A stretch of DNA of 56,310 bases from Promethearchaeota archaeon. Its GTDB lineage: Archaea; Asgardarchaeota; Lokiarchaeia; Sigyniarchaeales; SOKP01. Shown piece after piece: positions 45,079 through 56,310 of the stretch. Where the stretch lies: the NCBI GenBank assembly GCA_048940445.1, contig JBHLON010000023.1:1-56310 (forward strand). Reading direction: 5' to 3'. How positions within the stretch are numbered: position 1 is the first letter of the stretch; each line of letters begins with the position of its first letter. Under the pieces are notes generated by a model. The model did not search any database. It was given only the letters and a program-made list of their open reading frames with translations, and was not told the origin of the DNA. The position numbers were made by a program, and so were the translations under genes.

Positions 45079-45558
45079 CTAAAATAGTTTAGAACTTTTT
45101 TTACATTTAATCTTAGGGAAGAAATCATAATCAAAACAAGAAATGTGTTTTAATAATTCATTGGTATGCTTTAAATCAATTTCACTTAATATTAAGAAGA
45201 GTCTTATCAAATGGGAGCAAAAATGTTTATTAAATTTGTTCAAGAAACGAAATTCTTTGCACTTATGGTGAATATATTGCATTTTTTTATTTATTTCAAT
45301 AATACATTCCTTAGATGGTTGATTTTGAATTATACATTTAATTGTTCCACTATCTATATTTAACTCTATAAATTTAAATTGTGAAGATAACATACCCCCA
45401 CTTTTAATTAGAGTCTCCCTTTTAGAAAAAGATAGTAATAACCGCTTAAAATGATCTTTAAGGGGAGGTCCACCTTTAGTTAAAATTTGAGAAGACTTGG
45501 ATCTAGTTGCATTTCTTAATTGTAATTCCCAATCAAAAAATGAGAGGGGTTTTTCCAT
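45079..45558 (-). CDS. SWIM-like zinc-finger protein
   Basis: H-x-C..(x13)..C-x-H-L pattern (HKCKEF...FCSHL) after beta strands. Confidence 0.55.
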   Translation of the reverse strand: MEKPLSFFDWELQLRNATRSKSSQILTKGGPPLKDHFKRLLLSFSKRETLIKSGGMLSSQFKFIELNIDSGTIKCIIQNQPSKECIIEINKKMQYIHHKCKEFRFLNKFNKHFCSHLIRLFLILSEIDLKHTNELLKHISCFDYDFFPKIKCKKSSKLF

Positions 45559-48910: not shown

Positions 48911-49089
48911 TTTTCTTCCTTAGGTTAATTTTTAATAATTCTATTAATATAAGAGATTTCACATATAAATTCTTCAGTTTATAAGTAAGTTAACGAACCA
49001 TAAAAAGATAATTAATGATTTCTAATATAGAAGGAAATATTGGTATAAATTTACTGATTCTTTTCCTAAATCTTTTTCTTCAAAAACTT

Positions 49090-49470
49090 CTATTCCTGAA
49101 GAATTTTAATTCCTTGTATCAAATGGCGTGGGGAAATTCCATAAAGCAAAGCTTCATGTAGTACTTTAACATCCACCATATTTAACTTTATATTCGATCC
49201 TTTCAAATTGTGTTCTTTCATTAATCGAGTAATAACTTTATAGGATGTCTCATCCTTTAGTTTTCCAAAGCAACCTCCAAATGCTGTAAACATATTATAA
49301 ATTAACTCTCTTTCTTTATTTGTAAATCTCTCAGCACATTTACAGCAAATCACCTGAAAATCATTACCTATTTTGACAATTTGAGGTTGCATTCCCATAT
49401 CATTATGACATAATTTGCATACGACGGGTTTTAATTTCCTTTTCTCTGAAATTAAATCTTGTACGATCAT
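49090..49470 (-). CDS. Zinc-finger protein (CxxC...CxxC) with helical C-terminus
   Basis: CKLC and CCKC pairs. Confidence 0.7.
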   Translation of the reverse strand: MIVQDLISEKRKLKPVVCKLCHNDMGMQPQIVKIGNDFQVICCKCAERFTNKERELIYNMFTAFGGCFGKLKDETSYKVITRLMKEHNLKGSNIKLNMVDVKVLHEALLYGISPRHLIQGIKILQE

Positions 49471-49491
49471 ATTATTTCCTATTCTAGATTC

Positions 49492-49507
49492 TATTTAAAG
49501 GAAAAAA
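49492..49507 (-). promoter_or_regulatory. Shared promoter motif TTTTTTCCTTTAAATA before the Zn-finger gene
   Basis: TATA 21 nt upstream of ATG 49470; near-identical to the motifs at 52550 and 53536. Confidence 0.6.
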
Positions 49508-49512
49508 GTTAA

Positions 49513-51249
49513 CTAAAATAATTTTTCAATTAAGAGATTTAGTAGAAAAATAAATCTTGGAATGACAGGGAGAATTTCTTCAAGAAAAACTATTTTCTCT
49601 TCATGGACAGCTCTTCTAAGTGGTACAATAATCTCACATATTTCTCTTACAATACTTAAAGAAGAGTTATCAAATTTACTTTTCAAAATATTAAAAAAGT
49701 CTTGTACATCAGGAGGATTTTGCGGGTTATTTAGATCCCTTAAGATATGAAGCCATTTTCCAGAAGAAATATTTCTCTTTTTTCGTAGAAAACCGCCAAA
49801 TTTTTTTTCAAATTCCTTTGAAGTTTGATTAGTGGAAGATTTTTTTCTATATTGAGTAATGAATGGTCTAAATTGAACAGCAACTTTTCTTTTTAGGATC
49901 ATTTCGAACCCCTTATTATATTGTACAATTACGGGGGTTGCATCCATCTTAGTTTGAGTCTTTCTTGTCCCAAAGTCAAATTCTGCCGTTTGTAAGATTC
50001 TCTTAATAGTCTCATTAGGAATTTGATTAAGATTTAAAGCACCTAATTCAAGACTCTTCGGAGTTCTTCCCAAAAGGGTTTGGATTTCTCCTATTTCACT
50101 CAATAAATATTCAGTATTTTTACTCGACAGATCATTATCAATTAAATTCTCAATTTCGGTTAATTTCTCGAACATTGATTTGTCATCTTGATGTTCTTTC
50201 TTAGATATATCTTCGTGTATTTGACCATTAGTTAAAGAAGAATCATCAGTATGTGAGTCTTTGAAATCAAAAATCTCTATAATAGTATGGTTAGGCACTT
50301 TTAGCTTTTGTAACACATACTGAAAATCGATAATATCATCCTCATTAAGAACATATTTGGTTTTATCCATTGATACCCATTGGGTTAGAAATTCCTCATC
50401 GATCCCATTAACCCAATGATGATTGCGCAAATAATCATAAAGTTTGAGTGGATAATATAGCTGTTCAGTGCTTAAGTTAGCACTATTTACTTTCTGTTTA
50501 CGATAATCATGGATAAGTTGCATGAACTCTTTTCCAATCATTTTATTTTTGGAAACAATGAGATCATACTCATCTGAAAATGGATTTACATATATTGACT
50601 TTTCTACTCTTCCTAATGTATATAATCTAGATGAAATATCTGGAATTTCAATTTTGTAATAAAATCTAGTATAGTTTAGCACTTTATCCCAATGCTTAGG
50701 ATCAATTTCAGCTAATAATTTAGAAATAGTTCGGGCGTTTCCCGAATCATTCAATTCAGTATAGATATTAGTTGCAATAGTTCTAATCTTCAAGATTCTA
50801 TCCTGAAGAATCGATGTATTTTTTGAAGAAGAAATCAGAAACTTCTCAAATTCGAGGTCTTCAGGAGTTAAATTGAGAAATCTTTTACTTTTTTTATTGT
50901 AAAAAATGAACTTATCTTCCCTCACATGAGAAGATATATCTTCATGACAATTTATAACGCAATGAATATCTTCGAGACTGATGATCTCTTCAAGTTGAGT
51001 CTCATTTACATTTGTAATAAAAAAGAGAGAAGGATTCTGAGAATAAGAGTTATATTTCTCTAACTCAAGAACCTCTCGTACGTTATGGAGTGCAGTAGAG
51101 TCCAAATCAACAATATTGTATCCCACAGCAAAGATGTCTAAAGATCGTAAATGCTTCAGATCCACATAGGGAAAAATAACTACACTTTTTTGCTGAAAAA
51201 ATAAAATATTAAAAAATTCCGGTTGAATAAAGTCAAATGCAGTATCCAT
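49513..51249 (-). CDS. Multidomain hypothetical protein with C-terminal HEPN/Swt1-like helical domain
   Basis: LQTAE..DATPVIVQYNKGFEMIL..SSGKW..LRRAVH; start 14 nt after the mglA stop. Confidence 0.55.
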   Translation of the reverse strand: MDTAFDFIQPEFFNILFFQQKSVVIFPYVDLKHLRSLDIFAVGYNIVDLDSTALHNVREVLELEKYNSYSQNPSLFFITNVNETQLEEIISLEDIHCVINCHEDISSHVREDKFIFYNKKSKRFLNLTPEDLEFEKFLISSSKNTSILQDRILKIRTIATNIYTELNDSGNARTISKLLAEIDPKHWDKVLNYTRFYYKIEIPDISSRLYTLGRVEKSIYVNPFSDEYDLIVSKNKMIGKEFMQLIHDYRKQKVNSANLSTEQLYYPLKLYDYLRNHHWVNGIDEEFLTQWVSMDKTKYVLNEDDIIDFQYVLQKLKVPNHTIIEIFDFKDSHTDDSSLTNGQIHEDISKKEHQDDKSMFEKLTEIENLIDNDLSSKNTEYLLSEIGEIQTLLGRTPKSLELGALNLNQIPNETIKRILQTAEFDFGTRKTQTKMDATPVIVQYNKGFEMILKRKVAVQFRPFITQYRKKSSTNQTSKEFEKKFGGFLRKKRNISSGKWLHILRDLNNPQNPPDVQDFFNILKSKFDNSSLSIVREICEIIVPLRRAVHEEKIVFLEEILPVIPRFIFLLNLLIEKLF

Positions 51250-51263
51250 TTCATTATCCTTTA

Positions 51264-51941
51264 TTAAATTAGATTCAGTTTATTCTTGAAGTAATGAAAA
51301 ATCACTTGAATGATTAAATCTTCAAAACATTCTTTAACATTTTCACCTGTAAGAGCAATTACTGGATAGACTACTTGTGTTCCATCCTCATAGGATTCGG
51401 ATGTAGGAAGTCCTAATTGTTTTTTGAACTCATTTATCATAATGGCATTCTCTAAATCCCTTTTATTCAATTGAATCACATAAGGAATCTTGGTTTTCTT
51501 TGTAAAACTAACTAACTCTCGGAAACTTCTTTTATTCTGTTCAATCTCTTCAGGATTGGAATCAGCAACAAACACCACTCCATCTGCTCCATCTAGTACA
51601 TACTCTCTGGTCTGTAGAAACCTCTCTTGTCCTGTACACGTAACTATTTGAGTAATTACATTAAATTTAACTTCTCCTAAATCAATGAAAAATGATACTC
51701 TAATAGAGTCTTGCCATAGGGTTCTACCATCAGTAGTCTCAATTGAAATCCCTTTATTCAATAAAATCCCATTGAACTTCTCTCTAAGCCTAAAATAGTT
51801 GGTTGTTTTTCCACTCTCACCTGGACCCCAAAATACTATTTTGAATTGGAGTACATCCTTAAGGGTTTTAGGTGTAGTTTCTCTATTTATCACCATATCT
51901 TTCCTTTTTGACTTGCCTTTTATATTTGAATCTGCTGACAT
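51264..51941 (-). CDS. mglA: MglA-family small GTPase
   Basis: KIVFWGPGESGKTTN (G1), GRTL (G2 with intrinsic Arg), TCTGQ (MglA-type G3), GADGVVFVADS, QLNKRDL (G4). Confidence 0.88.
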   Translation of the reverse strand: MSADSNIKGKSKRKDMVINRETTPKTLKDVLQFKIVFWGPGESGKTTNYFRLREKFNGILLNKGISIETTDGRTLWQDSIRVSFFIDLGEVKFNVITQIVTCTGQERFLQTREYVLDGADGVVFVADSNPEEIEQNKRSFRELVSFTKKTKIPYVIQLNKRDLENAIMINEFKKQLGLPTSESYEDGTQVVYPVIALTGENVKECFEDLIIQVIFHYFKNKLNLI

Positions 51942-51966
51942 TTTATGCTACCCTCCCTTAACTGCC

Positions 51967-52500
51967 CTATGCAGATCCAAATATCTTCTGCTTTAGATTT
52001 TTCAAATAGTCTTTAAGTTCTGTTTCATTCATTTCTAGTTTGGTTAAGATCTCTCTACTCTCCTTAATTGCTTCGCGAATTCTTTCAGCGAATTTACTCA
52101 TTTGGAGGATTAACACGCCAATATTTACCTCTTTATCTACTAGAAGAATGACCAATATCTCCCTATTACCCTTATTGGGAAGGTCAATCTTCCCAACTGA
52201 CTTAACATAAAGTTGTAGATCCTTGAAAATGAGGGTAGCTCGTATCAAAGCTTGAGTTCCAAAAAAATCTTGTGCTTGTCTTGCTACACCATATAATGCC
52301 GCTCCGATAGAACTTAAATCCCAGTAATTCAGTTTTCTATCAAATCGAGAGTCAATAGCGATAATTTTGGCATCTTGGTCGATAGTAATAAGTCCATAAA
52401 TAAAGCCCCTTCTCGTGAGTTTTCCATAACTCAGACGAATCTCATCTAAGACATCTGAAATTTCATTATCATACAATACTTTTGGTACATAAAATGACAA
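51967..52500 (-). CDS. MglB-like roadblock/LC7 domain protein with coiled-coil tail
   Basis: IDQDAKII, LSSIGAALYGVARQ..FFG, LYVKSVG, NIGVL; 25 nt upstream of mglA. Confidence 0.8.
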   Translation of the reverse strand: MSFYVPKVLYDNEISDVLDEIRLSYGKLTRRGFIYGLITIDQDAKIIAIDSRFDRKLNYWDLSSIGAALYGVARQAQDFFGTQALIRATLIFKDLQLYVKSVGKIDLPNKGNREILVILLVDKEVNIGVLILQMSKFAERIREAIKESREILTKLEMNETELKDYLKNLKQKIFGSA

Positions 52501-52549
52501 TTTTTGTTATCACATCCTTTAATATTCTAAAAAGAGAATAAAAGATGAA

Positions 52550-52566
52550 TATTTAAAGGAAAAATT
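52550..52566 (-). promoter_or_regulatory. Shared promoter motif AATTTTTCCTTTAAATA before mglB
   Basis: TATA 49 nt upstream of TTG 52500. Confidence 0.6.
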
Positions 52567-52579
52567 GAAATAAGGTGCT

Positions 52580-53506
52580 TTAAATTATTTTAAGGGCTGA
52601 AATTTTAGTATAATAGAGTTCTTTCTGATTAGTATAGTTATTAACTCTGGCAGCAACGTTTCGTATCCTTATATAATATCCTTCATCAATATTTTTCAGG
52701 ACGCTGATTGCTTTCATCCCCCAAATATTAACTACCACAGAACTAGAATTATCGCTTAAAAGAAGTTTTAGTAGAAAAGTCTTTTCCCCATTTTTTTTCG
52801 TAATTTCTTTAAATTCTTCGATGTGAACTTTCCCTTGAATTGCTTTAATAAATTTATACCGTTCCATTAAGTCTTCGATATTAAGAGGAACTTGAGATGT
52901 ACCTTTTTCAGAAATATTCTCTGAAGGTTTTATATTGATTAGCTTTTGCTTGGTTTGAAAATTCATGACTTCTGGAGCTAAAATAAGTTTTCCTTTTTTA
53001 CTTATGTGAACCTCAATCTCACCGTCTCTATTACTCTTTGCATAATCACCAATGACCCGTACTAGACTACCCTTTAAAGTATTATTCTGAAGAGGCGCTG
53101 CTTTCTCATCCCATACGTTAATTTTTATTTCTCCCGTCTCATCTCCTATTACAAAAGAGTTAACCAAACCTTGAGAACCATCTTTTCTAGAAAATCCTCT
53201 TTGTGGGTATATTGCTATGATCTTTCCCAATAACACGATATTGACCATTCCTTCTTTTACTTTCTCAATAGGAACAGTGAGTTCATCATAATCAATTTTT
53301 CTCTCAATTTCTTCATAAAATTTAAGATCGGTTGCAGGATCTCGTATCTCAATTCCAAGATCTTTGGCGATAAGGAAGAGAACACCTTTCTTAGATATGT
53401 ATCCACTATATTCTTTAGCTTTCTTTTGAATTGCTTTTTTCAATTGTTCCTTAGGAATTCCCGAATCCAATAATTTTTGATAAATCTCTTCAGTTGAAGA
53501 ATTCAT
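52580..53506 (-). CDS. rpa: Archaeal replication protein A / ssDNA-binding protein, two OB folds
   Basis: GYISKKGVLFLIAKDLG N-terminal domain; FSRKDGSQGLV..IGDETGEI...WD; second OB LSDNSSS...WG; ATG 53506 or GTG 53512. Confidence 0.85.
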   Translation of the reverse strand: MNSSTEEIYQKLLDSGIPKEQLKKAIQKKAKEYSGYISKKGVLFLIAKDLGIEIRDPATDLKFYEEIERKIDYDELTVPIEKVKEGMVNIVLLGKIIAIYPQRGFSRKDGSQGLVNSFVIGDETGEIKINVWDEKAAPLQNNTLKGSLVRVIGDYAKSNRDGEIEVHISKKGKLILAPEVMNFQTKQKLINIKPSENISEKGTSQVPLNIEDLMERYKFIKAIQGKVHIEEFKEITKKNGEKTFLLKLLLSDNSSSVVVNIWGMKAISVLKNIDEGYYIRIRNVAARVNNYTNQKELYYTKISALKII

Positions 53507-53535
53507 AAGCACTACAAGCTAAAGTAAGATAAGAG

Positions 53536-53552
53536 TATTTAAAGAAAAAATT
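53536..53552 (-). promoter_or_regulatory. Shared promoter motif AATTTTTTCTTTAAATA before rpa
   Basis: TATA 23-29 nt upstream of the start. Confidence 0.6.
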
Positions 53553-55829: not shown

Positions 55830-56310
55830 TATTTGTTTCTATTAAAATTTTAATTAAATATTCCACAGCCCAGATTGCATTCTTAGGAAGCTGAAAAAAC
55901 TTTATGACATAAATATTCAAATACGTAAAAGATAATGGTATACTTATGAGTTTTATATTTATAAAAGGGAAAAAGTATTACATTGTCGTGAGAATCTGTA
56001 AATCCTAAATTTCTAAAGACATAATTTATTACTGTTGATTTTGAGGAGAAGTTTAATAGTGCTTTAGGGAGTACAGATAATAATGCTTCACCATTTTTTA
56101 TTATATCAGGACGCACTAATATCTTATTCTTAACCAAATCAGCCGTGCACAACCCAATATTAAGAATTATAATTACTTGTTAAATATATTCAGTCCACAT
56201 TTATAAATGAAAATTAGCGATATTGATCCAAGTTAAATTGTAATTTAGGCTTTCTTCTATGGTTAAGAAAGTAAATTCGGCACTTTTCAAAGTTTTGGAC
56301 TAATTTTTTC

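Follow-up and report, generated by a model that had tools for sequence, protein, structure and literature searches.

Genes of the locus

We analysed a 56,310-nt stretch of a Promethearchaeota archaeon genome (Lokiarchaeia; assembly GCA_048940445.1, contig JBHLON010000023.1; hereafter the window), which carries on one strand the genes for an RPA-like single-stranded DNA (ssDNA)-binding protein (rpa), a roadblock/MglB-like protein (mglB), an MglA-family GTPase (mglA), a 578-amino-acid (aa) protein and a zinc-finger protein (Table 1). Computational comparison established the identities of these genes, a three-gene operon of mglB, mglA and the 578-aa gene, the DENN-like fold of the 578-aa product, the exchange of its C-terminal tail, and the membership of the operon in a recombination gene cluster with a common promoter element. 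An initial annotation of the window had instead proposed a GTPase switch with a HEPN-like output, possibly an RNase or a nucleotide sensor, co-regulated with rpa, for example in a DNA-damage or infection response.

The open reading frames (ORFs) bore out the layout given in that annotation, with five same-strand genes, gaps of 25 nt (mglB–mglA) and 14 nt (mglA–578-aa gene), and the strings TAE..D.TP...Y.K..E..L and RRAVH, both found in the 578-aa protein; the outer gaps are 79 nt (rpa–mglB) and 42 nt (578-aa gene–zinc-finger gene). The host genome measures 3.64 Mb, is 93% complete and holds a single copy of the 578-aa gene, whose named homologs come from Promethearchaeota. The RPA assignment rests on OB-fold and replication factor A matches (E 3e-34), and the zinc-finger protein gave weak Zn-ribbon/TRASH matches.

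Table 1. Genes, domains and promoter elements of the locus (window coordinates)
Feature	Position	Strand	Remarks
Promoter element of rpa (T-tract-C abutting TATA box TTTAAATA)	53536-53549	minus	
RPA-like ssDNA-binding protein, 310 aa, two OB folds	52580-53512	minus	own transcription unit, regulon member
Promoter element heading the mglB-mglA-DENN operon	52550-52564	minus	
Roadblock/MglB-like protein, 177 aa, probable GTPase-activating protein (GAP)/scaffold	51967-52500	minus	weak profile match and position before mglA
MglA-family small GTPase, 225 aa	51264-51941	minus	best PDB relatives and motifs
578-aa DENN-like protein	49513-51249	minus	third gene of operon
Predicted DENN-like core (alpha/beta and helical subdomain), residues 1-200	50650-51249	minus	
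Family-specific helical domain (about 225-336), variable linker, amphipathic helix	50059-50649	minus	
HEPN-like tail, residues 398-578, RNase LS/LsoA-like	49513-50058	minus	degenerate motif R545-x3-H549 at 49603-49617
Promoter element before the zinc-finger gene	49492-49506	minus	
CxxC/CxxC zinc-finger protein, 126 aa	49090-49470	minus	own transcription unit, regulon member
FEN1-like gene, 3' end	56199-56310	minus	XPG matches; at window end

A promoter element common to the operon and a recombination cluster

The element stands before rpa, mglB and the zinc-finger gene and is absent before mglA and the DENN gene. The same pattern holds in related loci, where it precedes mglB in 42 of 48, mglA in none of 50 and the DENN gene in 4 of 51; before the zinc-finger gene, the TATA box starts at -29 from the ATG in 17 of 20. 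Judged from its sequence, the element is T-rich and appears to stand where the usual B-recognition element (BRE) would be. The mglB, mglA and 578-aa genes are thus one operon and the five genes three transcription units; a five-gene operon is ruled out by the separate elements and by frequent insertions between the units. Co-regulation of rpa with the module, as initially proposed, is probable through this common element, but as separate transcription units and not as one block.

Two motif models placed these promoters at the top of the host genome. A matrix trained only on 40 mglB promoters from other genomes ranked rpa first, mglB second and the zinc-finger gene fourth among 3,067 host genes. 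An unseeded motif was derived from 48 regions upstream of eight further cluster genes, taken from other genomes; it is only partly independent, because those genes were chosen after the first scan, and ranked the zinc-finger gene first, mglB second and rpa third among 3,062 host genes, with mglA and the DENN gene near the bottom. Scores of at least 12 bits were reached by 12 of the 26 genes of the cluster segments, against 9 of 3,041 elsewhere in the host genome. A sigma-70 promoter scan stayed at chance level, and the element was not found outside the host's family.

The other top-ranked genes lie on host contigs C42 and C124 and comprise Hel308-like and Hef-like helicase units, a helix-hairpin-helix membrane operon, an M50 protease and small membrane proteins. 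C124 overlaps the right end of the window by 77 nt inside the FEN1-like gene and therefore joins the operon to part of the cluster. In eight relatives the segments lie together in a single cluster, at most about 45 kb long, and the operon is within or beside it, its third gene lying beyond the contig end in two of the eight; there the element stands before most unit heads and is lacking from most inner genes and flanks. The cluster of these relatives also contains a third RadA, a RadB-like gene and a TFB paralog. In another class, Hel308, RadB-like and FEN1 genes lie directly upstream of mglB.

The third RadA paralog (about 400-430 aa) carries the element in the cluster (G015:C1, G019:C26:31027, G178:C36:40090 and others); it was not found in the host assembly and possibly falls in the gap between C42 and C124. 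A zinc-finger paralog also lies inside the cluster of relatives. The membrane operon (C42:30358-37957) is headed by the element, encodes a 649-aa helix-hairpin-helix protein, two transmembrane proteins, a 1,238-aa protein and a 124-aa protein, and is conserved in most of the eight relatives; we regard it as a candidate DNA channel. Searches against solved structures gave no match for the 74-aa or the 1,238-aa cluster protein, with one sub-threshold DUF87 match, and pilin and VirB4 labels for the cluster's membrane proteins could not be confirmed.

The cluster encodes a divergent, full-length TFB (C42:48858-50120), one of eight TFB-family proteins in the host genome, with an altered helix that reads R-M-S-T-I where the seven others have T/S-E-x-T. 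We take this helix to be the one that reads the BRE. The paralog occurs in 30 of 40 genomes of the family, in up to six copies (G213), and in none of 160 other sampled genomes; a distant form adjoins the DENN gene in a sister family.

Membership does not seem to extend to DNA repair at large. Hel308 orthologs carry the element in 9 of 24 cases and housekeeping RadA in 0 of 29, and the host's two housekeeping radA genes have low scores, as do its mre11 and polB, so that a general DNA-damage regulon, and with it the general damage response of the initial annotation, is unsupported; no link to infection was found. Strong copies outside the cluster precede genes at C33:681-1097 (HNH/endonuclease VII-like by eye), C94:57156-59447 (a repetitive 763-aa protein) and C47:64787-66607 (LAGLIDADG-like), possibly selfish genes exploiting the regulon. 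Weaker copies precede an RPA32-like gene (C139:11996-12703) and an ERCC4/XPF-like gene (C84:64706-65443), the latter assigned by eye.

Components of the operon

The four best solved relatives of the GTPase are all MglA, from Myxococcus and Thermus (E ~1e-22 to 2e-20), as the initial annotation had expected. Its motifs are G1 GPGESGKTT, G3 TCTGQ (T-x-x-G-Q) and G4 NKRD, with switch I Arg73 at the position of MglA Arg53, and the G1, Arg73, G3 and G4 residues are invariant or nearly so among 32 homologs. On these sequence features the protein is an MglA-type GTPase, distinct from Rag and not a Rab. The 177-aa protein (mean column identity 75% within the family) matched a solved Roadblock/LC7 protein weakly (E 0.041), and its profile also retrieved typical roadblock genes of 155-165 aa before MglA-like genes in other classes; this match and the gene position point, weakly, to a roadblock protein. 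A complex prediction of MglA, two roadblock chains, GTP and the DENN part scored 0.39 against 0.34 for a control and was not used either way.

For the N-terminal part of the 578-aa protein, the top fold matches of the structural model were folliculin, DENND10, SMCR8 and DENND1A, with DENN proteins filling the first five ranks and the matches spanning residues 1-200, helical subdomain included. The conserved portion is accordingly modelled as a DENN-like domain, a core that the initial annotation had missed. Identity to eukaryotic DENN/longin proteins is 6-13%, Pfam DENN and folliculin families matched none of 95 family members, and no match came from PDB sequences; Pfam, NCBIfam and PDB sequence searches with the 578-aa protein or its N-terminal alignment returned nothing, and ARIH1 and Spo16 matches were treated as noise. 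The longin (uDENN) domain is not in the same chain, the model beginning directly at the alpha/beta subdomain, and the roadblock gene may provide the longin part in trans. An amphipathic helix after the linker marks the end of tail-less homologs. DENN-like domains were also seen at the C-terminus of a 658-aa protein, with a zinc-finger tail, and with unclassified helical tails lacking a HEPN motif (among P0211, P0204, P0136, P0152 and P0161).

The neighbourhood is conserved in part. In the host's family, 48 of the 54 loci that have an upstream gene show mglA immediately before the DENN gene, so the order is more than chance; the outer genes are looser, with rpa upstream of mglB and no more than four genes away in 29 of 46 family loci but directly adjacent in only 12, and the zinc-finger gene directly downstream of the DENN gene in 11 of 52. 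All three core genes show high conservation and are single-copy in most cases; the triple recurs in three further families, two of other classes and one sister family in which the DENN gene comes first; stand-alone DENN cores measure 237-240 aa in one other-class family and about 290-320 aa in another.

Loci of one other Asgard class (L137-L141, L154) read Hel308, zinc protein, RadB-like, membrane protein, FEN1, mglB, mglA and a 239-aa DENN, followed by an AsnC-type helix-turn-helix regulator and a large Ig-like protein, with mglA and DENN overlapping by 4 nt in most. One 98-kb contig (L067 and L075) holds two rpa-mglB-mglA-DENN-zinc-finger copies at a distance of ~13 kb. In one of them the DENN gene has an intact HEPN tail, is parted from mglA by an inserted gene and has a TATA-like site of its own; the other has a tail-less DENN and a split mglB. 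Elsewhere in the window a 159-aa protein is encoded at 45079-45558; its C-x-C...C-x-H pattern looks SWIM-like by eye, and in close relatives it follows the zinc-finger gene.

An exchangeable RNase tail

Of 228 homologs, counting fragments and near-copies, 180 have no tail, 18 carry HEPN-A, 16 NYN, 12 HEPN-B and 2 HEPN-C; about 79% thus stop after a short helix and about a fifth carry an RNase domain. Profile comparison of the four tail types found no significant similarity except a weak HEPN-B/HEPN-C match, and the acidic motifs of the NYN tails, which exceed Pfam's cut-off, are mostly intact. On a quick tree of the DENN part, in which long branches are present, at least 23 tail changes are needed; six each for HEPN-A and NYN follow from the strongly supported branches alone, and some strongly supported clades have mixed tails. 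Two related genomes agree in locus and flanks and differ in the tail, which is HEPN in the first and NYN in the second. The tail is an exchangeable accessory and not, as first proposed, the essential output of the module, because most homologs lack it.

The host tail belongs to HEPN-A. Its model has the four-helix HEPN fold with E-x3-K/R and resembles RnlA, LsoA and Csm6, although unrelated helical bundles tie, and language-model features suggest an RNase LS-like HEPN; both bear out the HEPN-like call, even though Foldseek gave no match for the tail. Active HEPN domains have R-[NDH]-x3-5-H (Rx4-6H), in which the spacer has 4-6 residues and the Arg is usually followed by N, D or H. R-N-x3-H is kept in 15 of 17 other HEPN-A tails and degenerate in two, and the host copy, R545-R-A-V-H549, falls outside the pattern, with the His one position early and the Asn lost. 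An otherwise invariant Arg is also replaced (I563), and mean identity to other HEPN-A tails is 33.6%, the lowest of 12, with the host DENN part average. From these substitutions the host HEPN is probably catalytically dead, as the initial annotation had cautioned. An assembly error behind the odd motif is ruled out by contigs from two other studies, one identical over 49399-49746 and one covering 49009-50341 with one difference.

The HEPN-A tail matches the C-terminus of the PADLOC TPR model PDLC02907 (E 1e-12 here, to 2e-25 in homologs); none of the five whole proteins matched PADLOC models at E 0.001. Lokiarchaeial TPR proteins of ~950 aa that end in HEPN-A (L060:5923-8790, L061:6640-9516, L063:5651-8470) also match PDLC02907 and probably form the reservoir of this tail. 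When the tail alone was used as query in a short-word search, no free-standing homolog of 98-314 aa turned up, which is no proof of absence. At L174:2005-2859, a HEPN-B domain is encoded by a separate 285-aa ORF, which lies three genes away from a DENN-HEPN-A gene and resembles an orphan toxin tip.

Relation to known systems

An Asgard operon of roadblock (LAMTOR-like), small GTPase and DENN genes was predicted by Liu et al. (bioRxiv 10.1101/2020.10.19.343400). With its conserved part DENN-like, the core described here is therefore of that operon type: it links the same three kinds of gene and is conserved across Asgard groups, and the exact gene families are presumably the same. The text of the preprint labels the GTPase Rab-like, which does not fit an MglA-family protein, mentions neither HEPN nor MglA and, in the passages considered, gives no repair-cluster context. 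The MglA/MglB polarity switch of Myxococcus xanthus and Thermus thermophilus has the same mglB-mglA order and the MglA motifs, Arg53 equivalent included; here, in contrast, there is a third, DENN-like gene, the roadblock protein is very divergent, and no RomRX or motility context was seen. Eukaryotic DENN/longin regulators (FLCN-FNIP, C9orf72-SMCR8, DENND1, DENND10) share the central and helical DENN subdomain fold, whereas the Asgard protein has no fused longin domain. We know of no RNase tails on eukaryotic DENN proteins.

The tails resemble RNase LS/LsoA-type HEPN (PMC3710099) in helical fold and, in homologs, in E-x3-K and R-N-x3-H, and Regnase-type NYN RNases (PF11977) through the Pfam matches. 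Unlike known HEPN RNases, they sit in one chain with a DENN-like GTPase partner, an RnlB-type antitoxin was not seen, and the host motif is degenerate. The DNA-damage regulon of Sulfolobales (Orc1-2, an ANTTTC element, TFB3, Ups and Ced; PMC6061795) likewise unites a T-rich common promoter element, an extra TFB, and recombination and membrane genes in one programme; here, however, the element abuts the TATA box and differs in sequence, the TFB retains both cyclin repeats, and the genes are clustered together with a GTPase switch. No homology to CedA, CedA1, CedB or Ups was detected in the cluster proteins compared.

Proposed function and alternatives

We propose, at even chances, that the locus belongs to an alternative-TFB recombination programme with an MglA switch, roadblock and DENN regulators and an optional RNase. 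The divergent TFB would read the element and turn the programme on in the manner of an alternative sigma factor, comparable to the role of Orc1-2 and TFB3 in the Ups/Ced response of Sulfolobales. The programme would most likely serve DNA repair in which recombination uses DNA that cells take up or exchange with one another, and the membrane genes, on slender indications, might move that DNA. MglA, under roadblock and DENN control, would time or place the machinery, much as MglA places surface machines in Myxococcus; the roadblock protein could act as GAP and, together with the DENN core, may reconstitute a full longin-DENN regulator. Where intact, the fused RNase would probably add translation or growth arrest, or RNA clearance, during the programme.

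A role as a conflict or defence module, with a toxic RNase as the main output and the GTPase gating it upon infection or damage, is unlikely. Exchange among unrelated RNase domains is typical of conflict systems, and the PADLOC match and RnlA/LsoA-like fold of HEPN-A agree with this view; against it stand the many tail-less homologs, including the stand-alone DENN proteins of another class, the degenerate motif in the host and two more HEPN-A tails, and the conserved, mostly single-copy core genes, which no PADLOC model matches.

We consider improbable a folliculin/Ragulator-like regulator of nutrient sensing or trafficking (acting as guanine nucleotide exchange factor on Rab or Rag), as Liu et al. 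proposed, with the repair genes mere neighbours. The best fold matches point that way, and roadblock, GTPase and DENN parallel FLCN-Rag-Ragulator, but the GTPase resembles MglA and neither Rab nor Rag, the operon's rare promoter is common to RPA and helicase genes, and repair-gene neighbours are kept in other Asgard groups with no nutrient or trafficking genes linked.

That the cluster and operon are a domesticated conjugative or integrative element, with promoter and TFB its own switch, seems decidedly improbable. Patchy presence (about a quarter of family genomes lack a match, some of them 95-99% complete), the multiplied TFB copies and a membrane operon with a possible HerA/VirB4 remnant (its VirB4 label unconfirmed) would fit; yet cluster GC content (0.30-0.32) equals the genome's 0.302, cluster parts flank the operon in other classes, and no integrase or relaxase was recognised in the cluster maps, although no search was aimed at them. 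An inactivated AAA+/RecA-type P-loop domain that is DENN-like only through the common alpha/beta fold of the central DENN subdomain is very unlikely, since AAA+ matches span residues 1-120 only, short of the first-ranked DENN matches, and the operon context agrees with the published DENN operon.

The operon type is already published, and its regulon context, not the host copy's HEPN, carries the interest; no description of the RNase fusions, the cluster or the promoter was found in the literature searched, which covers few subscription journals. GTPases paired with likely regulators by operon are rare in these archaea (PMC10933270). DENN, roadblock and small GTPase proteins are central to eukaryotic trafficking and mTORC1 signalling, and the locus gives their archaeal relatives a concrete context: a recombination cluster, one promoter element and a candidate sigma-like TFB. 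This context suggests that the module, a relative of the regulators of trafficking in eukaryotes, works in the repair or exchange of DNA. A bolder version, which we hold to be doubtful, is that Asgard archaea have a dedicated alternative-TFB programme for cell-to-cell DNA exchange and recombination, with its own RadA, RPA, Hel308, Hef, FEN1 and membrane channel, that timing or placing it was the ancestral role of roadblock, GTPase and DENN, and that a GTPase-gated polymorphic RNase serves as checkpoint. If it were true, the membrane DENN regulators of eukaryotes would descend from an archaeal parasexual switch.

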